This document shows positions 12,641 to 35,396 of a stretch of DNA of 64,000 nt, one piece after another; position 1 is the stretch's first letter; every line of letters starts with the position of its first letter. The notes beneath the pieces were generated by a model, which worked only from the letters and a program-made list of their open reading frames with translations, was not told where the DNA came from and ran no database searches. The stretch is from an uncultured Chloroflexia bacterium. Lineage in GTDB: Bacteria; Chloroflexota; Limnocylindria; Limnocylindrales; CSP1-4. Made by a program: the position numbers and the translations under genes. The stretch covers positions 223,475 through 287,474 of the forward strand of contig CAWGTR010000006.1 in assembly GCA_963825545.1 (NCBI GenBank), in the 5' to 3' direction.

Positions 12641-12652
12641 GGAGGAGCGCGG

Positions 12653-13204: not shown

Positions 13205-13512
13205 CGAACTCCCTCGATGCCTACCTGATCCTGTCCGGCCTGCTGTTCTGCCTCGGGACCTTCGGCTTCCTTGCCCGCCGCAACGCGATCAGCATGCTCA
13301 TGTCGATCGAGCTGATGCTCAACGCCGTCAACCTCTCGATCGTCGCCTTCGGGGCGTTCGTGCCCAAGCTCCAGGGCCAGGGCTCGATCATCGCCCTGGT
13401 GGTGATGGCCGTGGCGGCGGGTGAGGCGACGGTCGGGCTGGCCATCGTCATGGCGATCTTCCGCAACCGGCGGACGCCGCTCGTCGACGAGTACGACTCG
13501 ATGCGGCAGTAA
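13201..13512 (+). CDS. nuoK: NADH-quinone oxidoreductase subunit K
   Basis: ATGA overlap with nuoJ. LMSIELMLNAVNLSIVAF...AAGEATVGLAIVMAIFRNRRT. Confidence 0.95.
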   Translation: MTNSLDAYLILSGLLFCLGTFGFLARRNAISMLMSIELMLNAVNLSIVAFGAFVPKLQGQGSIIALVVMAVAAGEATVGLAIVMAIFRNRRTPLVDEYDSMRQ

Positions 13513-13516
13513 GCCG

Positions 13517-15487: not shown

Positions 15488-15491
15488 GCCG

Positions 15492-17039: not shown

Positions 17040-17046
17040 GCGGGCG

Positions 17047-19485: not shown

Positions 19486-19805
19486 GGCGACGCCGACGCT
19501 CCGCCGCTCGGGGCGGCCGAGCCGGACGGGGCGACGGACGGGAGCAGCGGGCTCGGGGAGGTCGACCCGGGGATCGCCGACGCGCCGCCCGACGGCAGCG
19601 CGGACGGGGAGGGCAGCGCCGATCCCGAGGCCGAGGGCATGGCCGACGGGCTCGGGGATGCCGAGCTGGACGGCGCGACGGTCGGCGTCGGGGTCGGGGT
19701 CGGGTGGACGGGCCCCGGAACGAAGGCCACGGCCGCCGCGATCAGCAGCGCCGCCGCCGCGGCGCCGGCGAGCAGCGCGAGGACAAGGGCAAGGCGCGGC
19801 GGCAT
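19482..19805 (-). CDS. TM anchor plus Pro/Ser/Thr/Ala-rich linker ORF (107 aa), possibly the true N-terminus of otsB
   Basis: MPPRLALVLALLAGAAAAALLIAAAVAF followed by PTPTPTPT/PS-rich sequence. GC3-rich codons make this the coding frame between 19485 and 19805. It ends at a TGA created directly after a CCC run. Confidence 0.5.
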   Translation of the reverse strand: MPPRLALVLALLAGAAAAALLIAAAVAFVPGPVHPTPTPTPTVAPSSSASPSPSAMPSASGSALPSPSALPSGGASAIPGSTSPSPLLPSVAPSGSAAPSGGASASP

Positions 19806-19872
19806 GGCGGGAGGGTACCAGTACCATGCGGCCGCGGCGCCCTCATCGGGGAACGGCTAGGATGACGGCCCC

Positions 19873-20583
19873 ATGCGCACCGTCTTCGACCGGGTCCAGC
19901 GCCGCCTGGTGCCCGCCCTCCTGGCAGCACTCGGCGTCTCGCTCATCGCGGCCGGTCTGCTCAGCTACACCGCCCCGGTCGACGCCACCCCGGCGCCGTC
20001 GGGGAGTCAGTCCGTCGCCGGCGCGAGCCCGACGGCGAGCGCGCTGTTGACGTTCCCGCCGCTCGTCAGCCCGAGCCCGTCGGCCAGCGCCGGCGCCTCG
20101 CCGGGCAAGGTCGCGGTGGCCTCCCGGGTGGTCGTCCCGGCGCTGGACATCGACCTGCCGATCATCCGCCAGCCCGGCGGCGCGAACGCGTTCCCGCCGT
20201 GCAACGTGGCGATGTACCTCCAGCAGCTCCACCAGCCGGGGCAGCCGGGTCCGACGTACATCTACGCTCACGCGCGGACGGGCATGTTCCTGCCGATCCT
20301 GACCGCGTCGAAGATCGACAACGGCCGGCGGATGATCGGGATGCTCGTCGAGGTCTACACGACCGACGACCAGCTCTACCTGTACGAGGTGATCCAGGTC
20401 CGGCGCCACGTCACGACGCTCGACGGCGCGATGGCGGAGAAGCGCGAGACGCTCTGGCTGCAGACCTCGGAGGGACCGGTCGGGACGATCGAGAAGACCC
20501 AGCTCGTGGCCCTCCCGCTCGGTCATGCCCCGGCCGACCACAAGGAGGCGAACCCGAAGCCGAACCCGGTCTTCTGCCACTGA
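19873..20583 (+). CDS. membrane-anchored exported protein with a sortase-like domain (tentative)
   Basis: N-terminal TM (LVPALLAALGVSLIAAGLL), a PSA-rich linker, then RVVVPALDIDLPII, YIYAHARTGMF and ETLWLQTSEGP, which resemble sortase landmarks but with Ser at the TLxTC Cys position. Confidence 0.55.
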   Translation: MRTVFDRVQRRLVPALLAALGVSLIAAGLLSYTAPVDATPAPSGSQSVAGASPTASALLTFPPLVSPSPSASAGASPGKVAVASRVVVPALDIDLPIIRQPGGANAFPPCNVAMYLQQLHQPGQPGPTYIYAHARTGMFLPILTASKIDNGRRMIGMLVEVYTTDDQLYLYEVIQVRRHVTTLDGAMAEKRETLWLQTSEGPVGTIEKTQLVALPLGHAPADHKEANPKPNPVFCH

Positions 20584-20626
20584 GCCGTGCTGGGTGCGGG
20601 GTCGCCCGCGGGCCGCGATCGGGTCG

Positions 20627-21688
20627 CTAGATCCAGTTGATCCGGCGGAGGAGGTAGGCCATCAGGAACGCCAGCCCGATGATCGCGGCGGTCACCAGCC
20701 AGAAGCCGGCCGCCTCGGTGCCGGCGAATGCCGCGCCAGCCTCACTCATCCCGAAGATCCCGCCGAGCGCGCCAATCCCCGCCAGCACGACCGTCACCCC
20801 GGTCAGCCGCTTCATGATCAGCGACAGGTTGTTGTTGACCGTCGAGAGGTAGACGTCGAGGGTCCCGCTGACGAGTTCGCGGTAGGTGTCGAGCTCGTCG
20901 GTGAGGCGGATCAGGTGGTCATAGACGTCGCGGAAGTAGACGATCTCCGCGCTGTCGACGAGCGCGAGGTCGCGGTTCGTGAGCTGGTTGAAGATCTCGC
21001 GGACGGGCCCCGCCGCGCGACGGATCGCGACGAGCTCCCGCTTGAGCTCGAACAGCCGCTCGAGGGTCTGCGGGTCGCCCTTCTCGATCACGGCATCCTG
21101 GATCAGGTCGATCTCGTCGCCGAGCTTGTCCATGAGCGGGAAGTAGCCGTCGACGAGGTCGTCGCAGATCGCCCACAGCAGGTGGTCGGGGCCATGCGCC
21201 AGGACGAGCTCGAAGCCACCGGCCTTGAGGTGGTGGATCGCCCGGGGGTCCCAGTCTGAATCGTGGACCGTGAGCAGGAATCCTTCGCCGAGCACGACGT
21301 CGATCTCGCTCGGCACGATCGGGTCGCCGTACTCGAGCGCGAACAGCACGATGTGGATCAGGTCGTCGGTGACCTCGATCTTCGCCCGCTGGTTACCCTC
21401 GAGGATGTCCTCCGCGATGAGCTCGTGCAGCCCGAGCGCCTGGGTGATCGCAGCGACCTGGTCGGGCGACGGCCCGCTCGCGTCGATCCAGACGGAGCCG
21501 TCGGCCGGGATGGATGTCGGGATCGACGCGAGCCCTTCGGCCTCGCGGACCGCGGACCCGGCCCGCTCGAAGACGCGGATCCGCCCGTCGCCCGCGCCGA
21601 CGGCGTCGTGGTGGACACGATGAGCGAACCCGTCGAGCGGATCCGAGCGCGGCTCAGAGCGCGAGGGTCGGCTCCGTTTCCTCGCCAT
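20627..21688 (-). CDS. corA: CorA-family divalent cation transporter (signature reads GMS instead of GMN)
   Basis: Cytoplasmic CorA domain (LHELIAEDILEGNQRAKIEV...) with two C-terminal TMs and GGIFGMSE. ATG 21688 was chosen; the longer ORF start at 21928 is Arg-rich junk. Confidence 0.8.
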   Translation of the reverse strand: MARKRSRPSRSEPRSDPLDGFAHRVHHDAVGAGDGRIRVFERAGSAVREAEGLASIPTSIPADGSVWIDASGPSPDQVAAITQALGLHELIAEDILEGNQRAKIEVTDDLIHIVLFALEYGDPIVPSEIDVVLGEGFLLTVHDSDWDPRAIHHLKAGGFELVLAHGPDHLLWAICDDLVDGYFPLMDKLGDEIDLIQDAVIEKGDPQTLERLFELKRELVAIRRAAGPVREIFNQLTNRDLALVDSAEIVYFRDVYDHLIRLTDELDTYRELVSGTLDVYLSTVNNNLSLIMKRLTGVTVVLAGIGALGGIFGMSEAGAAFAGTEAAGFWLVTAAIIGLAFLMAYLLRRINWI

Positions 21689-23366
21689 CGATCGTCCGCG
21701 AGCCTCCCTCGTGGCGAGTGCCCTCGCCGACGTCGCCGGACCCGACCGCCGGCGAGTCGTCCGCCAGCATACGCGTCCGGCGGGTCCCGAGCGCGAGCGC
21801 CGGGAGGACCGCGGCGGCGACCACGATCGCCGCAGCGAGGAACAGCCCGACCATGATCCGGGACGCCTCGCCCGACGCCCAGCGCTCGAGGGCGGCCACC
21901 ACCAGCCCGTCGTCGAACGGCCGGCCAACGAGGTTGGGCGGGAGGAACTGCTGGTACGCGTCGGGCGTGGCGCTGATCGCCTGGCTCAGCCGATCGATCG
22001 TCGTCGAGCCATACGCCGTGAGCACGGCGAGCCCGACCGCCATCCCCATCATCCGGGCGACGGTCACGGTCGCCGAAGCCATCCCGAATGCCGCCCGGCC
22101 GGCGGCCTCGACCGCGGCCGTGGAGCGCGGCGTCACGGTCAGCCCGAACCCGGCCCCGAACAACGCCACCGCCAGGGCCGCGCTGGGGATCGTGGTCGCC
22201 GGCGTCCAGCCGGCCATGGCGACCAGACCGACCCCGCAGGCCAGCAGGCCGGCGAGGGTCACCAGCCGGAGCGACAGCCGGCGCACGGCGAAGCCGGCCA
22301 CGAGGGCCCCGATCGCGGTCGTGGCGGCCAGCGAGCCGAGCACGACCTGCTGCTCGGCCGGGCCGCCGTAGAGCACCCGATCGACGAACACAGCGGCCCC
22401 CACGATCGCCGTCGCGAACGCGTACCCGGTGAGGAGCGAGATCAGCGCGGCCGACGAGAACTCCACCGAGCGGAACAGCCGGACGTCGATGAACGGATCC
22501 CGCCGGACCAGTCCACCGGCGATCGCCAGCCCGAGGCCGGCGACCGCGACGACGAACAAGCCGGCGATCAGGACTGGCGTGGGCACGCCCAGCGTCGTGC
22601 CGTCCGCCGGACTGCCGAGCAGGGTCAGCCCGAGCAGCCCCGCTCCGAGCCCGAGCGTGAACGCGACGGCCCCGCCGATGTCGACCCGGCCGGCCCGGCG
22701 CGGCGTCTCCCAGCCGGTGTCGGCGGCCCAGGCGATCGCCAGGGCGACGATCCCGATCGGGACGTTGATGTAGAAGACCCAGCGCCACGCCGGCACGAGC
22801 AGCGAGCCGAGCGGCCCGCCGGCGACGCCGGCCGCCGCCAGGGCCGATTCGGCGTGGATCGTCCGGAGCAGGGCGGCGCCGAGGAATGGGCCGGCGGCCA
22901 TGCCCAGGAAGGTCAGGGCACCGATCGCGCCGAGCGCCCGCGGTCGCGCCGAGCCGCCGTACAGGTGCGCCGCGGCGGCGGTGGCCACGGGTACGAGCGC
23001 CCCGCCACCGACCGCCTGGATGAGCCGCGCCGCAATCAGCCAGTCGAGGCTCTGGGCCGCGCCGGCGAGGAGCGATCCGAAGGTGAACGCCACGAGGGCC
23101 CCGAGGAACAGCCGCCGGGTCCCCCAGATGTCGGCGAGCCGGCCGGCCAACGGCATCGTCGCGACGTACACGAGGAGGTAGCCGTTGACGATCCAGGATG
23201 CCCGGCGTAGCTGGGTCCAGGCATCGATCTCGGCGATCCCCTCCTTGTGCGCCATGTCGACGATGATCGACGGCAGGGCGACGGCGGTGATCATCAGCTC
23301 GAGGCCGGCGAGGAAGACCCCGACGCCGAGCACGCCGAGCAGCAGGAGATTCTCGCGGCGTCGCAT
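21654..23366 (-). CDS. MFS transporter, 14-TMS DHA2/EmrB-like
   Basis: MRRRENLLLLGVLGVGVFLAGLELMITAVALPSI..., MPLAGRLADIWGTRR and many TM segments. This is the C-terminal part of a 972-aa composite track ORF. Confidence 0.85.
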   Translation of the reverse strand: MRRRENLLLLGVLGVGVFLAGLELMITAVALPSIIVDMAHKEGIAEIDAWTQLRRASWIVNGYLLVYVATMPLAGRLADIWGTRRLFLGALVAFTFGSLLAGAAQSLDWLIAARLIQAVGGGALVPVATAAAAHLYGGSARPRALGAIGALTFLGMAAGPFLGAALLRTIHAESALAAAGVAGGPLGSLLVPAWRWVFYINVPIGIVALAIAWAADTGWETPRRAGRVDIGGAVAFTLGLGAGLLGLTLLGSPADGTTLGVPTPVLIAGLFVVAVAGLGLAIAGGLVRRDPFIDVRLFRSVEFSSAALISLLTGYAFATAIVGAAVFVDRVLYGGPAEQQVVLGSLAATTAIGALVAGFAVRRLSLRLVTLAGLLACGVGLVAMAGWTPATTIPSAALAVALFGAGFGLTVTPRSTAAVEAAGRAAFGMASATVTVARMMGMAVGLAVLTAYGSTTIDRLSQAISATPDAYQQFLPPNLVGRPFDDGLVVAALERWASGEASRIMVGLFLAAAIVVAAAVLPALALGTRRTRMLADDSPAVGSGDVGEGTRHEGGSRTIDGEETEPTLAL

Positions 23367-23421
23367 CGGCCGAGTGTAGCCGGGCGACCCCGAAGCACCG
23401 TCCGCGGGGCGCCGGCGATGG

Positions 23422-23450
23422 TTGACACACGCGGTTCCCGGTCGTAGCAT
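23422..23450 (+). promoter_or_regulatory. sigma-70-like promoter: TTGACA, 17 nt spacer, TAGCAT
   Basis: TTGACA at 23422-23427 and TAGCAT at 23445-23450 with an exact 17-nt spacer, in the MFS/arsR divergent gap. Confidence 0.6.
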
Positions 23451-23478
23451 CAACAGCGATTTATATAAATCCGTGTTG
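23451..23478. promoter_or_regulatory. AT-rich inverted repeat, candidate ArsR-type operator
   Basis: CAACAgcGATTTATATAAATCcgTGTTG. The core GATTTATATAAATC (23458-23471) is a perfect 14-bp palindrome and the outer CAACA/TGTTG arms also pair. It sits just downstream of the -10 and spans the likely arsR start. Confidence 0.6.
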
Positions 23479-23898
23479 AGCCATCCGTCGCTCGACGCCC
23501 CTCGGAGCCGTCTCCTGAGCCCCTCCCCGGTCCGCATCCGCTCGACCATCGCGTCCGTCGTCGACCAGCCCGACGAGCTGCGCCAGGTGCGCCAGTTCCA
23601 CCGGGCGCTGGCCGACGTCAACCGGCTGCGGATCGTCCAGCGGCTGGCAGACGGCGCGGCGACCGTGACCGAGCTCATCGAGCACGTCGGACTGTCCCAG
23701 CCGCTCGTCAGCTGGCACCTCGGCAAGCTCCGCGCATCGGGCATCGTCACCACCCGCCGGAGCGGCCGCGAGACGCTGTGCAGCCTCCGCCGGGACGCCT
23801 TCGACGAGGCGCTCGCCCGGGAACGAGCCCTGCTCGGTCTCGGCCTCCCCGTGCTGCCCGGCCGAACCGCCGGCACGACGGACGAGCCGGCGTCATGA
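23473..23898 (+). CDS. ArsR/SmtB-family winged-helix transcriptional regulator
   Basis: FHRALADVNRLRIVQRLADGAATVTELIEHVGLSQPLVSWHLGKLRASGIV. The start is uncertain: GTG 23473 was chosen because TTG 23422 is the -35 box. The stop overlaps the next start (ATGA). Confidence 0.75.
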   Translation: MLSHPSLDAPRSRLLSPSPVRIRSTIASVVDQPDELRQVRQFHRALADVNRLRIVQRLADGAATVTELIEHVGLSQPLVSWHLGKLRASGIVTTRRSGRETLCSLRRDAFDEALARERALLGLGLPVLPGRTAGTTDEPAS

Positions 23899-24608
23899 CC
23901 GCCACGAAGCCGACGGGCGGCGGCTCGCTCGTCCGGCCCGAGACCCGGACGAGGGTCAAGAAGCTGGGCGAGCCCGTCGCTCTGTTCTTCGGCCGTCTCG
24001 GGCTCACCCCGAACGGGCTCACCCTGATCGGATTCGGCATCACCGTCCTTGGCGCGGTGCTGGTGGGCTTCCAGTACTGGCTGATCGGCGGGATCGTCGT
24101 CTTCCTCGGCGGGGTGTTCGACATGTTCGACGGGACACTGGCCCGGGCGACCGGCAAGGTCAGCCCGCTCGGCGCGTTCATGGACTCGGTCTTCGATCGC
24201 TGGGGCGAGGCCTTCGTCTATGTCGGCGTCATCGCCGGCCTGGCCGGGGCCGGCTGGGACGTCGGCGGACCGGTCCTGGCCGCCGCTGCCATGGGCTCGG
24301 CGTTCATGGTCAGCTACACCCGCGCCAAGTCCGAAGGGCTTGGGTTCACCGAGGGGACCGGGATGGCCGCGGTCGGATTGATGCCCCGCGAGGTGCGGCT
24401 CATTGTCCTGTCGGCTGGGCTCATCCTCGGTGGGATCGTTGGGACCGAGGTGATTGACCGCGGCTTCTCGATCGGCGGGACCACGGTTCCGGCGGGCATC
24501 GTCCTCATCGAGGTCGCGCTGGGCATCATCACCCTGGGCGCGACCATCACCGTCATCCAGCGCATCCTCCATGTCAGGCAGCAGGCCGTCGCGCGCGACG
24601 GGAAGTAG
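23895..24608 (+). CDS. pgsA: CDP-alcohol phosphatidyltransferase, phosphatidylinositol-phosphate synthase-like
   Basis: DMFDGTLARATGKVSPLGAFMDSVFDR matches the D-x2-DG-x2-AR...G-x3-D-x3-D motif. Polytopic, and immediately upstream of ino1. Confidence 0.8.
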   Translation: MTATKPTGGGSLVRPETRTRVKKLGEPVALFFGRLGLTPNGLTLIGFGITVLGAVLVGFQYWLIGGIVVFLGGVFDMFDGTLARATGKVSPLGAFMDSVFDRWGEAFVYVGVIAGLAGAGWDVGGPVLAAAAMGSAFMVSYTRAKSEGLGFTEGTGMAAVGLMPREVRLIVLSAGLILGGIVGTEVIDRGFSIGGTTVPAGIVLIEVALGIITLGATITVIQRILHVRQQAVARDGK

Positions 24609-24620
24609 GGAGACAGTCAG

Positions 24621-25859
24621 GTGGCCAAGACCGGGAAGAACGGAACCAACGGCACGAACGGCGCGAAGCCGGCTGCCGGCGCGGCGCGCCGGACCGACGG
24701 CAAGATCCGGGTCGCGATCGTCGGGGTGGGGAACTGCGCCAGCAGCCTCGTCCAGGGTCGTTACTACTACGAGAACGCGAAGAAGGAGGACTTCGTCCCC
24801 GGCCTAATGCACGTCGAGCTCGGCGGGTACCACGTTCGCGACATCGAGTTCGTCGCCGCGTTCGACATCGACAAGAACAAGGTCGGCAAGGACCTCTCCG
24901 AGGCGATCTACCAGAAGCCGAACAACACCTACGTCTTCCAGCAGGTCCCGCACATCGGGGTGACCGTCGACCGCGGAATGACCCACGACGGGCTCGGCAA
25001 GTACCTCAGCCAGATCATCGAAAAGGCGCCCGGCCCGACGGCCGACGTCGTCGGGATCCTCCGCGAGCGCGAGGTCGACGTGATGGTCTCCTACCTGCCG
25101 GTCGGCAGCGAGGAGGCCACGAAGTGGTACGTCGAGCAGGCGCTCAAGGCGGGCGTCGGGTTCGTGAACGCCATCCCGGTGTTCATCGGCCGCGAGCCGT
25201 ACTGGCAGCGGCGCTTCGCCGAGGAGGGCCTGCCGGTCATCGGTGACGACATCAAGAGCCAGGTCGGGGCCACGATCAGCCACCGCGTCCTGACCCGCCT
25301 GTTCATGGACCGCGGCGTCCGCCTCGACCGGACCTACCAGCTCAACTTCGGCGGCAACACCGACTTCCTCAACATGCTCGAGCGCGAGCGTCTCGAGTCG
25401 AAGAAGATCTCGAAGACGAACGCGGTCACGAGCATGCTCGACTACGAGGTCGACCCCGATGACGTCCACGTCGGCCCGAGCGACCACGTTCCGTGGCTGC
25501 TCGACCGGAAGTGGTGCTACATCCGGATGGAGGGCACGACCTACGGCGACGTGCCGCTCAACGCCGAGCTCAAGCTCGAGGTCTGGGACAGCCCGAACAG
25601 CGCCGGCGTGATCACCGACGCGATCCGCTGCCTCAAGCTCGGCCTCGACCGCGGGCTCACCGGAACCCTGGTCGCGCCGTCGAGCTACTTCATGAAGAGC
25701 CCGCCAATCCAGATCCACGACGACATCGCGTTCAACCGGGTCGAGGCGTTCATCCGGGGCGAGGACAACGAGACCCTCGTCGGCACGGAGGCTCCGCAGA
25801 AGCGGACGCTCAGGCGGCTGGCCGGGCCGAAGGCGAAGGTGGCGGCCGGAGCCCGGTGA
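24621..25859 (+). CDS. ino1: myo-inositol-1-phosphate synthase
   Basis: [53 protein letters not shown] and [11 protein letters not shown]. Confidence 0.95.
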
Positions 25860-26872
25860 CCTCGGTCCCGGATCGGCCCGTGGCCGGCGGGCCGATCGAC
25901 CCTGGACCGCGACCCGCACTCGAGAGGCCCAACCGGCGCGTCGCGAGCGCGCCACGGGTCGTCGAGAAGACGGCGGTGCTCGCCTACCGGCTGGCCGAAT
26001 GGCTCGTCGCCCGGCTGCCGACCGGGCCGACGGCGCGTGTCGTCGGCTGGTTCGTCCAGGGGTCCTACCTGCTCTGGCCGACGAAGCGGCGCTGGTCCAA
26101 CCGCAACTTCGGCCATGTCCTCGGGCTGCCGCCCGACGACCCGGCGGTGCGGCGGATGGCGCTCCGGGCGTACCGGAGCTACGCCCGCTACCTCGTCGAG
26201 CTCCTTCAGCTCCCGTCGCTGAGCCAGGAGCGGGCGATCGGCCTGATCGACCAGGCCGCCGTCGACGACGTCGAGCGGCTGTGGCGGGGCTCGAACGGGC
26301 TGATCTTCGCGGCCTGCCACGTCGGGAACAACGAGATCATCGCCGCGGCCATCGGGTGGCGCGGCTGGCCGTTGGCGGGGCTGGCCGACGACTCGACGTT
26401 CCCCGAGCTGTTCGAGCATCTCCGCGCGGAGCGAGCCCGCTGGAACGCCCGGGTGATCCCGTGGCGCAACCTGCGCGAGGTCTACGCGGTCCTCCGACGG
26501 CGCGAGATGCTCGCCCTGCTGGTCGACTGGGGCTATCGGGCGGATGACGTCCCGGTCCGCCTGTTCGGCGCCTGGACGACCCTGCCGGCCGGACCGGCGA
26601 CGCTCGCCGGAAAGACCGGAGCGCTCATCGTGCCGGTCGCCATCCGGCGGCTGCCCGACGGCCGGTTCCACGCCTCGACCGAGCCACCGATCCAGGTGGC
26701 GTCGACCGAGCCGGCCGAGGTCCTGCGCGCTACGCAGGCCATCGCCGACGCGATCGAAGGGGTGATCGCGGCCGCTCCCGAGCAGTGGTACAGCTTCAAG
26801 CCGATATGGCCCGAGACCGCGGCCGAGGCCGCCGAGCTGGAGCGGCGTGCCGCCCGGATGGCCGCCGGATGA
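25856..26872 (+). CDS. LpxL/HtrB-PatA-type lysophospholipid/glycolipid acyltransferase (paralog 1)
   Basis: GTGA overlap with ino1. AACHVGNNE (HX4-acidic motif) and the C-terminal [12 protein letters not shown] typical of the family. Confidence 0.7.
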
Positions 26873-27870
26873 GCCGCGCAACGGCCGCCCCGGCCGCCGG
26901 GATCCCGGCGAGCGAGCGATCCACCGCCCGGCAGCGGATCGTCGCCGACGCCGTGACCGCCGCGTCGTGGCTCGCCTGCCATCTGCCCGAGCGACCGCTC
27001 GTCGGGCTGGCCGAGCTCGTCGGCGAGCTGTGGTACCTGGTCGACCGGCGGCGTGCCGAGCAGGCTCGCCGCAACCTGCGCCGGGTGACCGGCTGGATGG
27101 TGGCCGAGGGTCTTGCCGACGCACGGATCCGCGCGGCGTCCCGCGGCGGGCGGGCGCTCGACCGGTTGGTCCGGGCGGCGTTCCGCCACTACGCCACCTA
27201 TTACCTCGACGTTGCCCGGGCACCCGCGCTGACGCCCGCCTATCTCGCCGAGCGGCTGACGATCGAGACGCCGGAAGCGTTCGACGACGCCTTTGGCGAG
27301 CCCGGGCCGCGGATCTTCCTCGGGCTCCACTTCGGAGCGATCGAGCTGCAGGCGTACGTCGCCGCCGTCCACGCCGCGCGGCCGCTGACCACGCCGATGG
27401 AGACGGTCGACGATCCGGCTCTCCAGCGCTACTTCGTCCGGACGCGCGGCGCGCTCGGGATCCGGATCGTCGGGCTGCGCGAGGCGCGCCGCGAGGTCCT
27501 CGCCGCCCTCGGCCGTGGCGAGCCCGTCGGGATCGTCGGGGACCGCGACCTGACCGGCGGCGGAATGCCGGTCACGCTGTTCGGATCGCGCGCGTCGCTG
27601 CCCCTCGGCCCGGCGCTCGTGGCCATCGAGAGCGGCGCGCCGACGTTCGCGGTGACGGCGCGCCGGCTGCCGGGCGGGCGCTACGTCGGCCGGCTCGACC
27701 GGCTGGCCATCCCGGCCGCCGGCTCGCGGCGCGAGCGCGTGTCGGCCTTCCTCGACGAGGAGGCGCGCTGGTTCGAGCGCCAGGTCAGCGCCGCCCCGGA
27801 GCAGTGGTGGGCGGTCTTCTTCCCGATCTGGCCCGATCTCGAGGCCGCTCCGGCCGGGATCCGGCGATGA
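26869..27870 (+). CDS. LpxL/HtrB-PatA-type acyltransferase (paralog 2)
   Basis: ATGA overlap. RRAEQARRNLRRV, GLHFGAIEL, GIVGDRDL and APEQWWAVFFPIW. Confidence 0.7.
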   Translation: MSRATAAPAAGIPASERSTARQRIVADAVTAASWLACHLPERPLVGLAELVGELWYLVDRRRAEQARRNLRRVTGWMVAEGLADARIRAASRGGRALDRLVRAAFRHYATYYLDVARAPALTPAYLAERLTIETPEAFDDAFGEPGPRIFLGLHFGAIELQAYVAAVHAARPLTTPMETVDDPALQRYFVRTRGALGIRIVGLREARREVLAALGRGEPVGIVGDRDLTGGGMPVTLFGSRASLPLGPALVAIESGAPTFAVTARRLPGGRYVGRLDRLAIPAAGSRRERVSAFLDEEARWFERQVSAAPEQWWAVFFPIWPDLEAAPAGIRR

Positions 27871-28688
27871 CCGATCGGCTGGGTCGCGCCGACCTGCACA
27901 TCCACACGCTGGCATCGGACGGGATCTCCGGGATCGACGAGATCCTCGACCGGGTCGAGACGGTCGGCGAGCTCGACGTGATCGCCATTACCGACCACGA
28001 GCGGATCGACGCGGCGCTGGCCGCCCGGACGATCGCCCGCGATCGCGGCGCCCCGTTCGAGGTCGTCATCGGCGAGGAGGTCACCACCCGCGGCGGCCAT
28101 CTCCTCGCCCTGTTCATCGAGTCCCCGGTCCGCTCGCTGCGCTCGCTGCGCTCGACGATCGCCGAGATCCACGACCAGGGCGGCCTGGCCATCCCGGCGC
28201 ACCCGCTCGTTCCGTACCCGCTGTGCGCCCAGGGGTTCGTGCTGCGGCGGCTGCTCGGCGAGTCGGACCCGCGCTACCACCCGGACGGGCTCGAGACATT
28301 CAACCCGACGACCCTCGGTCGGCCGCTCCACGCCCGGGTCGTGCGCTTCGCCGTCGACCACGACCTGGCCCAGATCGGCGACAGCGATGCCCATGCGGCG
28401 GTGTCGATCGGTACGGGCTGGACGACCTTCCCGGGCCGTGGCGCCGACGATCTCCGGGCCGCGATCCTCGCGCGCGAGACGCACGCGCACGGGAGCTTCC
28501 ACGGCACCGGCAACCAGGTGTCGACGTTCGGGCGGCAGCTCCGCAAGTACGGCCGCGACGTGCGCGACGAGGTGCGCGGCCGGGTCCGTCGGGACGGCAC
28601 CGGGCGGGACCACGGCTACCCGGGCGGCCGGGCCCGACCGCCACGCTACGAGCCGGGAGCCGTGGCCGGTCCGGAGCACGGACGATGA
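27867..28688 (+). CDS. PHP-domain metal-dependent phosphoesterase
   Basis: ATGA overlap. ADLHIHTLASDG, AITDHERID, IGEEVTTRGGHLLALF, AIPAHP and GDSDAH are PHP His/Asp metal ligand motifs. Confidence 0.8.
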   Translation: MTDRLGRADLHIHTLASDGISGIDEILDRVETVGELDVIAITDHERIDAALAARTIARDRGAPFEVVIGEEVTTRGGHLLALFIESPVRSLRSLRSTIAEIHDQGGLAIPAHPLVPYPLCAQGFVLRRLLGESDPRYHPDGLETFNPTTLGRPLHARVVRFAVDHDLAQIGDSDAHAAVSIGTGWTTFPGRGADDLRAAILARETHAHGSFHGTGNQVSTFGRQLRKYGRDVRDEVRGRVRRDGTGRDHGYPGGRARPPRYEPGAVAGPEHGR

Positions 28689-29917
28689 AGATCGGGCTGG
28701 TGACGCCGTACGTGTACCCGGTTCCGGGCGGCGTCAACGAACACGTCCGCTACCTCTACGAGAACCTGCGCCTGCACGGACACGACGTCCGGATCATCAG
28801 CAGCAGTCACGGCCTCCAGCGCGCCTCCGAGGGCGACATCATCCGGCTCGGGAAGGGCTTCAGCGTCCCGATGAACGGCTCCGTCGGAACGGTTACCCTC
28901 TCGCCGCGCTACGTGGGCCTGGTCGACGAGATGCTCGACCGCGAGCGGTTCGACGTCCTGCACTTCCACGAGCCGTTCGTGCCGTTCCTGTCGCTCATCC
29001 TGCTGCGCCGGTCGCGGAGCGTGAACGTCGCGACGTTCCACGCCTACGCCGGGTTCTCGCTGTCCTACGAGTTCGGGGCGCGCGTCATGCAGGGCCACGC
29101 CCGGCTGCTCCATGGCCGAATCGCCGTCAGCGCAGCGGCGCGGCACTTCATCGACCGCTACTTCCCGGGCGACTACAAGATCATCCCCAACGGCGTCGAC
29201 GTCGACCGCTACCGGAAGGCGGTCCCGATCGCGCGCTGGCAGGACGGCACGCGCAACCTCCTGTTCGTCAGCCGCCTCGAGCCGCGCAAGGGAGTGCTCG
29301 TCCTGCTCAAGGCGTACCGGATCCTGCGCAAGACCGGTTGCCCATGCCGGCTCCTCGTCGTCGGTTCCGGACCGCAGGAGCGCGAGGCTCGGCGCTACGT
29401 GATGACCCGCCGGCTGGCCGGGGTGGAGTTCCTCGGCCGGGTGAGCGACGCGGAGAAGGCCCAGCTGTTCCGCACGGCCGACGTGTTCGTGGCCCCGGCG
29501 ACCGGTCGCGAGTCGTTCGGGATCGTGCTCCTCGAGGCGATGGCCGCCGGCGCGCCGATCGTGGCCTCGGACATCCACGGCTACAAGGGCGTCGTCCGGC
29601 GCGGCGAGCAGGGCCTGCTCGTGCCACCGGGCGAGCCGCGCGAGCTCGCCGCGGCGATCGGGCGGCTCGTCGTCGACGACAGCCTGCGCGCTGACATGAG
29701 CGCGAGCGGGATGGCCCGGGCCGAGACGTTCAGCTGGGAGCGGATCACCGAGCGTGTCGAGAGCTACTACGGCTTCGTGATCCGCCGGCTCGCGGCCCAG
29801 GGCGCCTTGCCGGCGGACTTCCGGGCCGAGATCCCGCCCTCGCCGCGCGTCCAGCCCGCGATCGCAGACTCCGACGGAACGGTCGAGGAACCCTCGGTCA
29901 TCGCCCGCCGCGGCTAA
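28685..29917 (+). CDS. pimA: GT4 (GT-B) glycosyltransferase, PimA-like
   Basis: ATGA overlap. MKIGLVTPYVYPVPGGVNEHV, FVSRLEPRKG and ESFGIVLLEAMAAGAPIVASD (E-x7-E). The gene symbol is tentative and rests on operon context. Confidence 0.7.
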   Translation: MKIGLVTPYVYPVPGGVNEHVRYLYENLRLHGHDVRIISSSHGLQRASEGDIIRLGKGFSVPMNGSVGTVTLSPRYVGLVDEMLDRERFDVLHFHEPFVPFLSLILLRRSRSVNVATFHAYAGFSLSYEFGARVMQGHARLLHGRIAVSAAARHFIDRYFPGDYKIIPNGVDVDRYRKAVPIARWQDGTRNLLFVSRLEPRKGVLVLLKAYRILRKTGCPCRLLVVGSGPQEREARRYVMTRRLAGVEFLGRVSDAEKAQLFRTADVFVAPATGRESFGIVLLEAMAAGAPIVASDIHGYKGVVRRGEQGLLVPPGEPRELAAAIGRLVVDDSLRADMSASGMARAETFSWERITERVESYYGFVIRRLAAQGALPADFRAEIPPSPRVQPAIADSDGTVEEPSVIARRG

Positions 29918-29951
29918 CGCTCGCGGCCCGACCCGGACCGGGCAAGGAGCC

Positions 29952-32900
29952 TCAGCCGGCCTGGCCGGTTGTCACGATCGAGCCAGGGTCGCGGCGCGCC
30001 GCCTCGCGCTCGGCCGCGGCGATCCGCCAGGCCCACGCGGCGTAGCCCACGATCACGCTCGTAACGAGCAGCGCGGCCAGGAGCAGGAGCACGTCGGCGA
30101 GGTGAGCCGTGATCGAGAACGGAACGACCTTGTCGGTGTTGACGGGGAACTGGAACGCGTACAGGTAGGTCGGCAGGAGGCCCTGGTACGCGTTCACGAT
30201 CGCGGCCGGCAGCGGGAGCCCCGAGATGTTCGGATACCACGTGACGAACCAGACGACGCAGGCGAGCATGATCCCTGCCGCGAACCGGCGGCTGTCGCGC
30301 GCGGTAGCCACGACCCAGGCGATCGGCGACAGGGCGATGAGGACGACGAGGGCGATCGGCTCGATTCGGAAGCCGTCCTGGCTCAGGATCGCGGTGTCCG
30401 GCAGGAACCCGCCAACGAGGATGAGCCCGATCGCCCCGCCGACGGCGGTCGCGGCGATCTGGAGGAACCGCCGATTCGCCTCCTCGGCCGATCGGTTGCC
30501 CGAACCGAGCCGGAGGATCTGGACGACAAGCAGCGCGCCGGCGACGAGCAGGATCGCGGCCAGCCCGGCGGTCCGCCAGGTCAGGACGATCTGCCCCGGG
30601 GCCGTCGCGACGCAGGCCTCCGAGCCCGGGTTGACCGCCGTGACCCGCACGAACGTGCACAGCGGGCCCTTGAACAGCCACATGAGAGCCGGGCCGAGGA
30701 CCGCGATCGCCGCGCTCACCCGGGCCAGCGCCCAGGTCCGTGCCGACGGCCCGTTCCGGAGCTCCGCGACGAAGTAGGCGAGGGCGATCAGCAGGAACGG
30801 CACCGCCGCGTAGTAGTGGTACTGGAAGGTGGCCCGGTCGATCCGCGCCCAGGGCAGCCACTGGAAGGCAAACGCGACGAAGACGAGCCCGAGGGCCAGG
30901 CTCCGGCGCTTGAACGCCTGCCAGGCCACGAACAACATCGCCGGGATCGACAGCCACCAGGCGACGAGGTTCCCCGCGTCGTAGATCGCCGCGGACGTGT
31001 TGGCCGCGAACGAGTCCTGGTAGAACCAGACCGGCTTGAGGTCGAGCGGCCAGGCCCAGTACGGCGACGACGCCGCATGGGTCGCCCGGAGCCCGTTGTG
31101 GTAGTCGTACATCTGGCGGGTCAGCGCGAGCAGCGTCTGGCCCGTGTTGCCGGGCGGCCACGTATCGGTGAGCCGGTTGCCCAGCGCCACCCAGGGCAGG
31201 TATGAGATCACGTAGACGACGATCGGGACCACCGCCAGGCAGATCACGCCCCATACGATCGGGAGGCCGAGGAGCGTCCCTGGTCGGAGCCAGCCCTCGG
31301 GCGGCGGGGACCCGGGCTCGGTGAGCCGGACCGGGTCGTCCGGGTCGGGCGGCAGCGCCAGCGGCCCGAGCCCCCAGATGCCGGCGAATCGCAGGATCGC
31401 CCAGACCACGCCCGAGCCGAGGATGAGCAGGAGCGAGATCACCGTCGGCGTCAGGGCCGCCGGGCCCGCGCCGATCGGCTTCACGGCGATGCCGAGCGGG
31501 ACCGCGATGAGGAACACCAGGATCCCGATCGCAGCCGGACCCACGATCGCGAGACGGGTCTCCTCGGCCGACCAGGCGATCGGACGGAAGACGGTCACGA
31601 GGACGGCCCCGAGCGTCAGGGCGATCATCAGCGCGACGAAGAGGAAGTTGCCGGCGCTCGTCGAGGCGTCCGGGGCGATGTCGATCGCCATGTAGCCTAG
31701 CACGGCCGTCCCGAGCGCCAGCCCGAGGATGAGCAGGATCCGGCCGAGCGCGGAGCGGCCCAGGATGAGCACGACGACGCCGGCCATGGCGTACAGCCCG
31801 ACCCATTTCGAGGCGAGCGCGAACCCAAGCAGCACGCCCACCGCGGGCAGCACGACCCAGAACGCCCACGGCCGTTTCCAGCGTCCGAGCCAGAGCGGTG
31901 CGAACAGGGTGTAGGCGGCCACGATGAAGAGGCCGACGTAGACGTCGTTCATCGCGATCCGGCTCTGCACGAAGAGCATTCCGTCGACCAGGACGAGAAT
32001 GGCGGCGATGACCGCGATCTCGCGACGCCGGAACAGGATCCGCACGAGCAGGAAGATGAGCCCGGCCGTGAGCGCCCCGGCGAGCATTCCCGGCAGGCGC
32101 CAGGCGAACGCGTGGTTGCCTGAGTCGACCGTGGCGAGCATCCCGTCGGCGGACGTGGCCAGGATCGCCTGGCGGTCGCCGCTCGGGTTCTCCGGGTTGG
32201 CGTCGAGCGCCCAGGCCTGCGCGTCGAACGGCAACCGGGCATCCGCATAGACCGCATTGCCGTGCGGCTCGACGACGTAGATCGTGTCGCTCGTCCCGTC
32301 CGGGGTCCGACCCAACACGTGGACCATCTGGGTCGGCTGGTCGTACACGAGGTCCCGGACGTCACCCGGCATCGGGAACGTCGTCGTCAGGTGCGGCCCC
32401 TCCTTGCCGTCGCCCTGCCCGAGCTGGATGACGGCCACGTTCTTGCCTTCGAGGGCCGCGTACAGGGTGGGCTGGTCGATCCCCGTCACGACGGTCAGGC
32501 CGCGGGCGGCGCCGTCGAGCGTCACGGTGTCCACGATCTGGCCCGTGGCCGGCGAGATGAACGTCACGCCGCCCTCGTCCGCGACCGCGATCCGCGGCAG
32601 CGGCGCGACCGTCAGCCCGGTCAGGCGGCCGTCCGAGATCGCGGTCGAGATGTCCTTCTGTTGCTGGTCGTCGGTGAACCCGCCGAGCAGGACCACCGCG
32701 GCCTCCCCCGCCGACGTGGCGGCCGTCAGTCGAGCCTGGTAGTCGGCGGCGTTCCCGCCGGTGATCGTGGCCAGGGCCGCGGACACGGCGGCCGGGTCGG
32801 TGACGGCCGTCGGGTCTGCCGTCAGCCCGTCGCCCAGTCCGCCGTCGGCGAGATCCGAGACGCCGCCGAGCCGCTGCCGGCCCGTCTCGGCGCCCGTGCT

Positions 32901-35396
32901 CGGGTCGACGAGGACGACCTCGCCACCACTCGTGGCGACCGCCATCCCGGAGGCGTCGGTGGTCAGCCCGAGATGCGTCACCGGCGCCTTCACGTCGGCC
33001 AGCGGCGCCGGCCCGTCGACGCTGGTGATCGGCGTTTCGGCGCTGTACCCGCCTGACGCCCGGGCGTCGTCGAGCACCGTCGTGTCGAGCGCGAGCACCT
33101 GGCCGCTGTCCGTGCCGACGAGGACGCGGTGACCGACGGGATCGAGCGTGAGGGCCGACGCCCCCGGCACCGACCAGGTCGTGATCAGGCCGCGGGTCAC
33201 CAGGTCGTAGGCCCGCAGCTCGTCGCCGCCGGCGACGTAGAAGCGGTCCCCGGACGGCGGGGACGGCCGGCTCGAGTCGACCCACTGCGGCTCGACGAGC
33301 ACGTCGCGGACCGTCGTGCCCAGCGAGCGCTGCGCGGTCACCCGGTCGTCCCCGGCGACGATCAGCCCGGCGGCCATCGCGTACTTGGCGATGTGGGGGT
33401 GGGTCCACTCGTAGATGTCGTGTGGCATCCCGTAGCGCCAGTCCTGGAGGAACTCCGTGGCGGTCCGCGCGTGGTAGACCTCGTCGAAGTGCATGCGGTA
33501 CGGCTCCGACAGCCGGAACGTCCGCGATACCAGGGCGACGAGCACGATCACCACGAGCAGCCACAGGTCGAGCCGGTCGAGCCGCCCGCCGCCCTCGCCG
33601 TGGAGTCGACGCGACCGATCGGGCAGGAGGGTCCGGATCCGGGCCAGCCCGAACGGCAGCGGCAGCCAGCCCGGGTCACGCTCGGCCGCGAACGAGGCTT
33701 CGTCCCACGCGATCGCCGGGCCGGCGCTTGGAGGGGCCGCCACCACCCGTCCGGCGACGGCACCGCCGGCCGCGGTCGTGGCCGCCACCGCCTCGCCGGC
33801 GGTCCCGGGGCCGCCCGAAGGGGCGCTCGTGTCGCCGCCGATCCACCCTCCGTCGGTCGCGTCGGCAGCGACGGCGTCCTCGTCCGCCTCCCAGAGCGCG
33901 GCGTCGATCGCCTCGCGATCCAGCCGTCGGAGCGCGGCGGGACGCAGCTCGGTGACCGCGAACACGAAGGCCGCGAAATGGATCGCCGCGACGGTCGCCA
34001 CCCCGACCGGGGATCGGATCGCGTCGGCCATGCCCAGCCAGTCCTTGATCCCGGGGTTCTGGAAGTACGGGATCAGGAGGACCGCGTACAGGTTCGCGAA
34101 GTTGGCCAGCGAGAGCAGGACGTAGGCCACGCGCCAGCGAACCGACGTGGCGGCGAGGATGGCGCCGAGGATGGCGAACGGGAAGAGGTACCGCTCGTGG
34201 ACCCGGGTGGGCACGACGAAGAACGCGATCGCCATCACCGTCAGCGCGACGAGGAGCAGCCGCCGGTCGTCGACGATGGCCCGGATCCGCTCGCCGCCCG
34301 AGCCTTCGTCGATGGTCACGATCGACGGCCGGTCCAGCCAGCCGACGACGAGGCAGACCGCCGCGATGACGATCAGCAGCAGCGCGGTCCCGACGTACAG
34401 CGCAGGGACGCCGGCGATGAGCGTCGCGACCTCGGCGGCGGTCGCCCCGGCGACGTCGCGCAGCCATTGGCCGTTCTCCGCCAACCCGTTGCCGCCGCGG
34501 CTGATCAGCGCCCACGGGTTATAGGCGTTGACGGTGATGTACGGGTAGCCGCCGGCCGTCTTGCCGACCTGCTCGACGAGCCCCACGATCGACAGGCCGA
34601 ACGGGAGGCACAGGAGGACCGCCGTCGCGAGCCCGACGCCGGCGCTCGTGACCAGCCGCAGCGGACCTTCGCCGAAGCGGTCGAGCCACGGCTCGCCGCG
34701 CGGTCCCGGCTGGGCGTCGGCCAGCGGGACGTCCCCTCCGGCTCCCGCCGGCGCAGGCGGCGCGGGCGGTCGCAGGCGATCCCACACGTGGCGCCGCAGC
34801 AGGACGATCGCCAGGATCGGCAGGAGGATCCCGAGCTGCGGCTTGATGACCGCGGCGAGCACGGCGAAGAACGTCGCCCGCTCGGGCCGGCGCCGCCACA
34901 GGTCGCGCAGGCCGAGCAGCAGGAAGATCACCCCGAAGGCGTCGACCTGGCCCCAGATCGCACTGTCGAACCAGGTGACCGGGTTGACGAGCACGAACGC
35001 GGCGCCGAGCAGGGCGGCCCGGCGCGATCCACCGAGCTCGCGGACCAGGGAGTGGACCAGCCATGCGAGGACGACGTCGGCGAGGATCGGGGGCAGCTTG
35101 ATCAGGTCGCCGATGCCCCCGATCGCGTTCCCGACGATCCCCACGAGCCACAGCACGTAGAGGTAGCCGGGCGTGTAGTCGACGAAGAAGCCCCGGTTGT
35201 AGAAGCCCCCCGGACCGTGCGTCGCGAGCTCGTTCGCCCAGGCCTGGAAGGAGCCGCGGTCCGCTCCGAACCCGGAGCCGGGGAGCAGGACGTATGCGAT
35301 GATGAGGCGGAGGGCGAGGCCGACGATCAGGATCGCGATGAGCGCCAGGGCGGCCTCGAACGACCGCCTCGGCGCCGCGGTGCCTCGGTCGGGCAC
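29952..35396 (-). CDS. giant (1814 aa) polytopic membrane protein: N-terminal GT-C module plus a GT39/PMT-like module split by a beta-propeller-like periplasmic insert
   Basis: Module 1: VDYTPGYLYVLW...VHERYLFPF. Module 2: MHFDEVYHARTA...HPHIAKYAMAAGLIVAGDD, then a roughly 420-aa repeat-rich soluble insert (FYVAGGDELRAYDL..., VLVGTDSGQVLALD...), then HAFAWRLPGMLAG...SRIAMNDVY...PYWAWPLDLKPVWFY...QYHYY. GTG start at 35396. Confidence 0.8.
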   Translation of the reverse strand: MPDRGTAAPRRSFEAALALIAILIVGLALRLIIAYVLLPGSGFGADRGSFQAWANELATHGPGGFYNRGFFVDYTPGYLYVLWLVGIVGNAIGGIGDLIKLPPILADVVLAWLVHSLVRELGGSRRAALLGAAFVLVNPVTWFDSAIWGQVDAFGVIFLLLGLRDLWRRRPERATFFAVLAAVIKPQLGILLPILAIVLLRRHVWDRLRPPAPPAPAGAGGDVPLADAQPGPRGEPWLDRFGEGPLRLVTSAGVGLATAVLLCLPFGLSIVGLVEQVGKTAGGYPYITVNAYNPWALISRGGNGLAENGQWLRDVAGATAAEVATLIAGVPALYVGTALLLIVIAAVCLVVGWLDRPSIVTIDEGSGGERIRAIVDDRRLLLVALTVMAIAFFVVPTRVHERYLFPFAILGAILAATSVRWRVAYVLLSLANFANLYAVLLIPYFQNPGIKDWLGMADAIRSPVGVATVAAIHFAAFVFAVTELRPAALRRLDREAIDAALWEADEDAVAADATDGGWIGGDTSAPSGGPGTAGEAVAATTAAGGAVAGRVVAAPPSAGPAIAWDEASFAAERDPGWLPLPFGLARIRTLLPDRSRRLHGEGGGRLDRLDLWLLVVIVLVALVSRTFRLSEPYRMHFDEVYHARTATEFLQDWRYGMPHDIYEWTHPHIAKYAMAAGLIVAGDDRVTAQRSLGTTVRDVLVEPQWVDSSRPSPPSGDRFYVAGGDELRAYDLVTRGLITTWSVPGASALTLDPVGHRVLVGTDSGQVLALDTTVLDDARASGGYSAETPITSVDGPAPLADVKAPVTHLGLTTDASGMAVATSGGEVVLVDPSTGAETGRQRLGGVSDLADGGLGDGLTADPTAVTDPAAVSAALATITGGNAADYQARLTAATSAGEAAVVLLGGFTDDQQQKDISTAISDGRLTGLTVAPLPRIAVADEGGVTFISPATGQIVDTVTLDGAARGLTVVTGIDQPTLYAALEGKNVAVIQLGQGDGKEGPHLTTTFPMPGDVRDLVYDQPTQMVHVLGRTPDGTSDTIYVVEPHGNAVYADARLPFDAQAWALDANPENPSGDRQAILATSADGMLATVDSGNHAFAWRLPGMLAGALTAGLIFLLVRILFRRREIAVIAAILVLVDGMLFVQSRIAMNDVYVGLFIVAAYTLFAPLWLGRWKRPWAFWVVLPAVGVLLGFALASKWVGLYAMAGVVVLILGRSALGRILLILGLALGTAVLGYMAIDIAPDASTSAGNFLFVALMIALTLGAVLVTVFRPIAWSAEETRLAIVGPAAIGILVFLIAVPLGIAVKPIGAGPAALTPTVISLLLILGSGVVWAILRFAGIWGLGPLALPPDPDDPVRLTEPGSPPPEGWLRPGTLLGLPIVWGVICLAVVPIVVYVISYLPWVALGNRLTDTWPPGNTGQTLLALTRQMYDYHNGLRATHAASSPYWAWPLDLKPVWFYQDSFAANTSAAIYDAGNLVAWWLSIPAMLFVAWQAFKRRSLALGLVFVAFAFQWLPWARIDRATFQYHYYAAVPFLLIALAYFVAELRNGPSARTWALARVSAAIAVLGPALMWLFKGPLCTFVRVTAVNPGSEACVATAPGQIVLTWRTAGLAAILLVAGALLVVQILRLGSGNRSAEEANRRFLQIAATAVGGAIGLILVGGFLPDTAILSQDGFRIEPIALVVLIALSPIAWVVATARDSRRFAAGIMLACVVWFVTWYPNISGLPLPAAIVNAYQGLLPTYLYAFQFPVNTDKVVPFSITAHLADVLLLLAALLVTSVIVGYAAWAWRIAAAEREAARRDPGSIVTTGQAG

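Follow-up and report, generated by a model that had tools for sequence, protein, structure and literature searches.

A conserved seven-gene operon for a proposed phosphatidylinositol mannoside-type pathway in Limnocylindria (Chloroflexota)

Known inositol-lipid gene clusters and the Limnocylindria operon

Phosphatidylinositol mannosides (PIMs) are viewed, together with their biosynthesis, as a speciality of actinobacteria and as a drug-target pathway in tuberculosis. In Mycobacterium tuberculosis, we take the early PIM operon to be Rv2613c-pgsA1-patA-pimA-Rv2609c, flanked by HIT and Nudix genes; in mycobacteria ino1 lies elsewhere, and the PIM cluster is not known to have a PHP gene or a dedicated regulator. 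Here we analyzed a stretch of 64,000 nucleotides, in the following called the window, from an uncultured Chloroflexia bacterium of the order Limnocylindrales (contig CAWGTR010000006.1). It contains a seven-gene operon that encodes, in this order, an ArsR-type regulator, a phosphatidylinositol phosphate (PIP) synthase, Ino1, two PatA-like acyltransferases, a PHP-family phosphoesterase and a PimA-like GT4 glycosyltransferase. As in the mycobacterial operon, genes for PIP synthase, PatA-type acyltransferase and PimA stand side by side, and the chemistry that leads from PIP via phosphatidylinositol (PI) and PIM to acylated PIM would be shared. Unlike the mycobacterial operon, the Limnocylindria operon holds ino1 inside the cluster, two PatA paralogues, a PHP and an ArsR gene, is devoid of HIT and Nudix genes, and belongs to a host from the Chloroflexota and not from the Actinomycetota. 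It is a variant of the known PIM pathway cluster and not a new kind of system.

A second described system is found in Bacteroides thetaiotaomicron, where MIPS and PIP synthase are likewise encoded together, accompanied by a dedicated PIP phosphatase (BT_1522-BT_1526; PMC9246714). PIP is an obligatory intermediate of this inositol-lipid pathway, and its phosphatase, BT_1525, is a PgpA-family enzyme unrelated to PHP (PMC9246714). In contrast, none of the seven Limnocylindria operon proteins matched the PgpA domain of this phosphatase type in Pfam, and the Bacteroides pathway leads to inositol sphingolipids and not to mannosides. If the PHP protein indeed acted as a PIP phosphatase, it would be an analogue, not a homologue, of the PgpA-type enzyme.

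We consider it probable that the Limnocylindria operon is autoregulated and serves a route from glucose-6-phosphate to an acylated PIM-type glycolipid. In the proposed reaction sequence, Ino1 would make inositol-3-phosphate from glucose-6-phosphate, and PIP synthase would join it with CDP-diacylglycerol to form PIP, i.e., phosphatidylinositol-3-phosphate. The PHP phosphoesterase would then strip off the phosphate to yield PI, and the PimA-like GT4 enzyme would place a hexose on the inositol, most likely mannose from GDP-mannose, which would give PIM1. Finally, the two PatA-like paralogues would acylate the headgroup, one of them probably on the mannose, as PatA does, while inositol O-3, freed by the phosphatase, may be the acylation site of the other.

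Reading and translation of the sequence gave seven consecutive open reading frames on the plus strand, from 23515 (a corrected start, see below) to 29917. The coding frames of all seven genes match the third-position GC content of 0.85-0.98 seen over roughly 23.5-29.9 kb, in a window with an overall G+C content of 72%. The operon is limited upstream by a divergent gene that starts at 23367 on the minus strand and downstream by a convergent minus-strand gene with its stop at 29952. ATGA overlaps join the genes for the regulator and PIP synthase (23895-23898), the first and second acyltransferase, AT1 and AT2 (26869-26872), AT2 and the PHP protein (27867-27870), and the PHP and PimA-like proteins (28685-28688), and a GTGA overlap joins ino1 and the AT1 gene (25856-25859). 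Between PIP synthase and ino1, the TAG stop at 24606-24608 is followed by a gap of 12 nt that carries a GGGAGA Shine-Dalgarno sequence and by the GTG start at 24621. A preliminary description of this DNA had already reported such a seven-gene cluster with ATGA or GTGA overlaps at five of its six junctions and one 12-bp gap, which sequence and translated reading frames confirm; the gene functions given there were reproduced by Pfam, NCBIfam and PDB searches. The four-base start/stop overlaps would couple the translation of most genes, and we infer that all seven are co-transcribed.

Synteny was compared across Chloroflexota in the best 80 of 510 related loci, obtained from a scan of one genome per species of the Genome Taxonomy Database (GTDB), and gene order in these loci was determined by tblastn with the seven window proteins. 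Nearly all 80 loci are labelled as Chloroflexota or Limnocylindria metagenome-assembled genomes, each of a different species. Order and orientation of the seven genes are kept wherever the contig reaches, apart from one gene missing in each of two loci, namely ino1 between the PIP synthase and AT1 genes in L071, where the upstream region is divergent, and AT1 in L055. As the same gene order recurs in related genomes, chance juxtaposition is excluded, and the conserved synteny supports the operon as one functional unit. Leaving aside a few close relatives, identity across the loci is 81-96% for Ino1 (81-99% overall), 72-94% for the PimA-like protein, 68-86% for the PHP protein (68-92% overall, mostly 69-77%), 59-89% for the regulator, 42-69% for PIP synthase and 41-64% for the acyltransferases. 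The PHP protein hence is among the most constrained members of the cluster, because its identity exceeds that of PIP synthase and of the acyltransferases.

Distant relatives of the PHP protein were collected with a HMMER search of 1.8 billion cluster representatives, which returned 151 proteins at E ≤ 1e-30; PHP homologues carried the names Candidatus Limnocylindrales and Chloroflexota. Genomic context was looked up for 12 PHP proteins, from these 151 or related to them, with 33-51% identity. On seven of the 12 contigs, at PHP identities of 33-50%, the PHP gene stands among the same PIM-type enzymes, and two further contigs were too short for judging the context. The same seven genes in the same order occur in L081, a Candidatus Limnocylindrus locus, and in L082; the 4-bp overlaps between AT1, AT2, PHP and GT4 genes recur in both of these distant loci, and L082 has five of them in total. 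In L085, the cluster is rearranged to ArsR-Ino1-AT-AT-PHP-GT4-PIPS (AT, acyltransferase; PIPS, PIP synthase), and L086 shows AT-AT-PHP-GT4. Gene order differs in three low-GC contigs, one of them from a Candidatus Goldiibacteriota assembly: L089 and L090, the latter being the Goldiibacteriota contig, have a GC content of 38-40% and read PIPS-Ino1-AT-GT4-AT-PHP without ArsR, and in L094 a PimA-like GT4 gene is followed by AT and PHP. The gene set thus survives rearrangement as well as a change of phylum, and therefore represents a functional module with PHP as an integral member.

Enzymes of the proposed pathway

The ino1 gene (24621-25859, plus strand) encodes a myo-inositol-3-phosphate synthase (TIGR03450, PF01658). 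It matched the actinobacterial ino1 model TIGR03450 over model positions 1-355 of 355 with 530 bits (E = 3.5e-159; equivalog cut-off 638), and PF01658 with E = 8e-35. The preceding gene (23895-24608, plus strand) encodes a CDP-alcohol phosphatidyltransferase of the PIP synthase type (PF01066). In NCBIfam, this protein reached 128 bits with the archaetidylinositol phosphate synthase model (cut-off 180) and 110 bits with the PIP synthase model (cut-off 170), compared with 21-24 bits for PgsA and PssA models, and its best PDB matches were the PIP synthases 5D92, 6H53 and 6WM5. The signature DxxDGxxAR...GxxxDxxxD is legible as DMFDGTLARATGKVSPLGAFMDSVFD, and a crude hydropathy scan indicated several hydrophobic segments, in keeping with a polytopic membrane protein.

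The substrate of PIP synthases is inositol phosphate and their product is PIP, from which the phosphate has to be removed before PimA can act. For this conversion of PIP to PI, alone among the pathway steps, no enzyme is assigned in the cluster, and the PHP-family metal-dependent phosphoesterase (27867-28688, plus strand) is therefore the best candidate phosphatase. It matched the Pfam families PHP_C with a score of 38.8 (cut-off 21.3) and PHP with 22.6, the latter being under the cut-off of 26.4. The tri-metal site ligands H11, H13, H44, E70, H102, H112, D174 and H176 are invariant in 32 sequences down to 33% identity. An AlphaFold model with a predicted local distance difference test (pLDDT) value of 88.9 matches PHP structures; at the C-terminal end, the core carries a helix of 28 residues and a basic tail, with 14 Lys/Arg versus 7 Asp/Glu, and this tail (residues 214-262) is conserved throughout Limnocylindria. 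Sequence, profile and Foldseek searches for a specific function among solved structures gave generic PHP relatives only, the nearest structures being uncharacterised PHP proteins, RNase AM, a 3',5'-nucleotide bisphosphate phosphatase and histidinol-phosphate phosphatase.

With solved members of the PHP superfamily (TrpH/YciV RNase AM, 7UG9 and 9ETK; the 3',5'-nucleotide bisphosphate (pAp) phosphatase Cv1693, 2YB1; histidinol-phosphate phosphatase, 2YXO) the protein shares the fold and the full set of metal ligands, at about 15-24% identity and template modelling (TM) scores of 0.4-0.6. Several superfamily members are phosphomonoesterases, as is proposed for the Limnocylindria protein. In contrast to the solved members, however, its C-terminal helix and basic tail are conserved features of its own, and its genomic context is lipid biosynthesis and not RNA or histidine metabolism. 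The characterised relative 2yb1, which was bound to AMP and phosphate, hydrolyses a ring phosphomonoester beside a second phosphate; phosphatidylinositol-3-phosphate is analogous in chemical terms, which makes the proposed reaction plausible. It is genomic context alone that inclines us, by a little, towards a PIP 3-phosphatase that releases PI from PIP. On this activity would also depend whether the operon holds a complete set for the path from PI to acylated PIM, as the preliminary description had it.

The mycobacterial PIP phosphatase has been termed long-sought, with EphE as an unproven candidate (bioRxiv 10.64898/2026.07.15.738315). In the literature we found no paper that ties a PHP domain to PIP dephosphorylation, and none that ties Limnocylindria or Chloroflexi to PI, PIM or PimA. 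Three PHP-GT4 fusion proteins (P0130, P0188 and P0129) are present in the 50%-identity library; they may be genuine fusions or frameshift artefacts and were not relied on as Rosetta-stone evidence, because a single sequencing indel in the 4-bp overlap would create them.

The last gene of the operon (28685-29917, plus strand) encodes the GT4 glycosyltransferase. Its alignment with M. smegmatis PimA (2GEJ, 4N9W) spans the entire length (residues 1-363) with E = 6e-62, and the next-best solved GT4 enzymes were MshA-like (3e-21) and PimB' (1e-18). Pfam matches were Glyco_transf_4 (5e-20) and Glycos_transf_1 (3e-38), the N- and C-terminal GT4 domains of a GT-B fold. In pairwise alignment, the protein keeps equivalents of PimA Y9, G15/G16, H118, R196, K202, D253, K256, E274 and E282; we take Y9, G16, H118, R196, K202, E274 and E282 to be donor-binding or catalytic residues of M. 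smegmatis PimA. Around residues 60-85, the Limnocylindria protein is neutral or acidic where mycobacterial PimA has its membrane-anchoring basic amphipathic region. Judged by sequence, membrane binding may differ from that of PimA.

Both acyltransferases, AT1 (25856-26872) and AT2 (26869-27870, both on the plus strand), belong to the PatA/LpxL family (PF03279). Their best NCBIfam match is the PIM acyltransferase PRK07920, with 125 bits for AT1 and 119 bits for AT2 (both under the cut-off of 209), and M. smegmatis PatA structures are their only solved homologues (E = 5e-16 and 6e-16, respectively). The HX4E motif is found as H-VGNN-E in AT1 and as H-FGAI-E in AT2, and the residue aligned to the second catalytic acid of PatA, E200, is Asp and not Glu in both. 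By pairwise scores and in a neighbour-joining tree, AT1 of the window, L081, L082, L085 and L086 forms one group and AT2 a second one, roughly equidistant from PatA. From these separate orthologue groups it follows that the duplication is old and that both copies were retained. In mycobacteria, PIP carries its phosphate on inositol O-3, the position that is acylated in Ac2PIMs by a still unidentified enzyme (PMC9490103). We may thus speculate about a division of labour, with mannose O-6 as the target of one paralogue and inositol O-3 as that of the other.

Regulator, promoter and operator

The first gene of the operon (23515-23898, plus strand) encodes an ArsR/SmtB-family winged-helix regulator of 127 amino acids, with matches to Pfam HTH_5 (PF01022, 1e-12) and NCBIfam NF033788 (77 bits, cut-off 55) and only a distant closest solved relative (best E = 1e-8). 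In the preliminary description, this gene began at a GTG codon at 23473. That codon falls within the presumed operator and is not shared by orthologues, and we have replaced it by the CTG codon at 23515, 42 nt further downstream, which is preceded by GGAG at 23504-23507, 7 nt upstream. Orthologues have CTG (28), GTG (14), TTG (3) or ATG (1) at this position and GGAG or GAGG 7-10 nt 5' of it. In every orthologue, protein conservation starts at the residue encoded by 23515-23517, and in L001 (90% identical), L006, L038, L080 and others the open frame is without any alternative start codon. Since conservation begins there, a Shine-Dalgarno sequence lies upstream and several orthologues lack another start, translation most likely initiates at CTG 23515.

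The N-terminal arm of the regulator, SPSPxRIRSTIASVVDQPDELR, is conserved and clade-specific. Cys is absent from alpha3 of the protein and His from alpha5, and an alignment of 40 orthologues contained neither a conserved alpha3N nor a conserved alpha5 metal site, which upholds the earlier remark that obvious metal-site Cys or His motifs are lacking. Invariant His/Cys positions are H29 and H68 only, and C89 is variable, being present in 30 of the 40 orthologues. Non-metal ArsR/SmtB repressors, e.g., BigR, HlyU, SdpR or Rv0081, resemble this regulator in their HTH_5 winged-helix core, in their position as the first gene of a presumably repressed operon and in a palindromic operator over the promoter. 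Unlike BigR and HlyU, however, the Limnocylindria protein lacks their Cys pair in addition to the metal sites, and it differs from the non-metal repressors by its clade-specific arm and its tandem 6-4-6 operator.

Upstream of the regulator gene, a sigma-70-type promoter (TTGACA-17 nt-TAGCAT, 23422-23450, plus strand) matches at 10 of 12 positions. It is the sole sigma-70-like site within 23200-30200, where 0.2 would be expected by chance, and TTGACA, a spacer of 17 or 18 nt and TAG[C/G]AT are conserved in 44 loci. The presumed ArsR operator (23449-23480) consists of two adjacent 6-4-6 inverted repeats, ATCAAC-AGCG-ATTTAT and ATAAAT-CCGT-GTTGAG, which overlap both the -10 box and the beginning of the transcript. 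An architecture of TTGACA-17/18-TAGcATCAAC-N4-aTTgATATAAAc-N4-GTTGAT is common to the 44 loci, including the distant L082, and related half-sites stand 5' of the ArsR gene in the rearranged cluster L085. The motif occurs once per 20-kb locus and once in the 64-kb window; no further operator copies were found within these limits, and no wider regulon is definable from them. A single promoter with an operator that overlaps its -10 box, kept in 44 loci, hence points to local autorepression by a sensor without a metal site, with the regulator blocking the promoter. Transcription would proceed from this one strong promoter, and two dimers of the ArsR-type protein would occupy the tandem palindrome that covers the -10 box and transcript start. 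The operon would stay repressed until a non-metal signal releases the regulator.

In the leader, RNAfold predicts a hairpin of the 5' untranslated region (23473-23498, plus strand, -13.4 kcal/mol) that takes in the last operator half-site. In most orthologous loci, a hairpin is predicted at the same place, in differing registers and with differing stem sequences. It could contribute to mRNA stability, extend the operator or exert translational control. Within 22800-30400, no known RNA family or riboswitch was matched in Rfam at E ≤ 0.1.

Combining these proposals, the PHP protein might represent a third, non-homologous kind of PIP phosphatase besides the PgpA-type enzyme of Bacteroides and the mycobacterial one, coupled by translation to the PimA-like protein and both PatA paralogues, the second acyltransferase a cytoplasmic inositol-O-acyltransferase for the position freed by the phosphatase, and the ArsR-type protein a sensor of a lipid or inositol intermediate and not of a metal. 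We put this combination forward tentatively, as a good possibility that falls somewhat short of probable.

Alternative readings, surroundings and significance

Several points weigh against the proposed pathway. Three of the 12 distant PHP relatives (L084, L091 and L092) are not beside inositol-lipid genes: none of the cluster enzymes is near the PHP gene in L084, and in L091 and L092 it adjoins DUF5656. The nearest characterised PHP relatives are nucleases and nucleotide phosphatases, with about 20% identity and TM scores of 0.5-0.6, and homology to such distant enzymes thus permits a phosphomonoesterase and names no lipid substrate. The PIP phosphatase could possibly be encoded elsewhere in the genome, our survey having covered the 64-kb window. 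With regard to the glycosyltransferase, the basic membrane patch of PimA (R68, R70, R77, K78, K80 and K81) is not conserved, the aligned residues being T, T, Y/V, G, V and D, and since the operon encodes one glycosyltransferase only, the product may stop at monoglycosyl-PI. The exact substrate specificities of PIP synthase, Ino1 and the PatA-like proteins could also differ, because all of these score under the NCBIfam equivalog cut-offs, as is expected in a lineage far from the model organisms.

A neighbour-joining tree of the PHP proteins gave no clean split of PIM-linked from unlinked members. L091 (8686-11586) and L092 (763-2418) represent a sister PHP group on contigs of 32-34% GC, located by DUF5656 and trypsin/PDZ protease genes. 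Their context is a different, envelope-related one, and a LytR-family (LytR-CpsA-Psr) gene lies upstream in L091.

PI and PIM-type lipids might be made with the PHP protein as an accessory, acting for example in hydrolysis of a nucleotide by-product, comparable to the Nudix and HIT genes beside the mycobacterial operon, in inositol-phosphate turnover or in phosphodiester remodelling of the lipid, and with the real PIP phosphatase encoded elsewhere. RNase AM and the 3',5'-nucleotide bisphosphate phosphatase as closest solved relatives would fit with such a role, as would the family members outside inositol clusters. Other phosphatase genes are also found in the vicinity, i.e., in L090 a gene for a PAP2 lipid phosphatase, at a distance of about 4 kb from the Goldiibacteriota cluster, and, in the window, a gene for a HAD-type phosphatase (Pfam Trehalose_PPase) 3.6 kb upstream. 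However, the PAP2 gene is missing from the sister contig L089, and the HAD gene was found in 16 of the 80 loci (many being too short to include it), on the other strand and outside the operon. In contrast, all arrangements of the cluster that were seen include PHP, its gene overlaps those of the acyltransferase and the PimA-like protein, and the cluster holds no other candidate for the conversion of PIP to PI. We therefore regard an accessory function as unlikely and retain the PHP protein as the candidate PIP phosphatase.

More doubtful still is a product other than a mannoside. In this case, the operon would make another inositol glycolipid or a lipid anchor, with a GT4 enzyme that uses a different nucleotide sugar and acyltransferases that act on PI or lyso-PI. 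The lack of conservation of the membrane and PI-interaction patch of PimA and the equivalog scores, all under their cut-offs, would be compatible with such a product. The GT4 protein, however, matches PimA with an E-value 40 orders of magnitude lower than that for any other solved GT4 and retains the donor-binding and catalytic residues, and for each acyltransferase PatA is the sole solved homologue and PIM acyltransferase the top NCBIfam match, which makes a non-mannoside improbable. That the seven genes are merely syntenic neighbours without shared regulation or pathway would fit with the flanking PMT-like, CorA and sortase genes, which are syntenic within the class as well. This reading can hardly be credited at all, however, since only the gene set of the operon outlasts rearrangement and phylum change, its genes are joined by 4-bp start/stop overlaps under one promoter, and five of its six enzymes fit consecutive steps of one known pathway.

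Downstream of the operon, the convergent gene (29952-35396, minus strand) encodes a protein of 1814 amino acids with a PMT/GT-C domain of the polyprenol-phosphate-mannose type at residues ~1093-1549 and about 1090 N-terminal residues without a Pfam match. A PMT-type gene adjoins the operon in 71 of the 80 loci and also in L082, where the giant protein has 2048 amino acids. The 1814-residue protein could act in protein mannosylation or in extension of the glycolipid. In L085, a minus-strand gene (538-2004) that lies about 4 kb upstream of the rearranged cluster has a weak Pfam match to GT87, which we take to be the family of PimE-type polyprenol-phosphate-mannose mannosyltransferases. Either this GT87 protein or the PMT-type protein could extend or use the mannosylated products.

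On the upstream side, the divergent neighbour (21358-23367, minus strand, 669 amino acids) is without a Pfam match, poorly conserved and matched in 3 loci. Beyond it, 18553-21928 contains genes for the HAD-type phosphatase (minus), a sortase (plus) and CorA (minus), which are syntenic in many Limnocylindria loci; the HAD-type phosphatase gene itself (18553-19842) is the sole rival lipid phosphatase candidate in the neighbourhood. A nuo cluster for complex I (3687-18519) occupies the upstream third of the window and includes, at 9854-12640, a protein of 928 amino acids with Fer2, Pyr_redox_2 and Fer4 domains. Because dnaN (44461-45576, minus), dnaA (46087-47844, minus) and yidC (48597-49907, plus) are present, the region of the replication origin is probably covered by the window; dnaA is located about 16 kb away from the operon.

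In mycobacteria, two steps of the PIM pathway are still without an assigned enzyme, namely PIP dephosphorylation and inositol acylation. The question of the mycobacterial PIP phosphatase is not solved by the Limnocylindria operon alone, because our analysis, in which no search was directed at mycobacterial orthologues of the PHP protein, brought none to light. New in this work are the host clade and the clade-wide conservation of the cluster, the finding that PHP accompanies the pathway genes in rearranged clusters and in a second phylum, the description of promoter and operator, the reassignment of the regulator start to CTG and the proposal of PHP as a PIP phosphatase. In the operon, a PIM-type pathway takes the form of a regulated unit that is both compact and conserved, in a class of soil and freshwater Chloroflexota that is abundant and uncultured, and a shorter form of the pathway cluster occurs in another candidate phylum. 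It thereby offers testable candidates for both missing activities, and a regulator-operator pair for studies on how inositol lipids are controlled.

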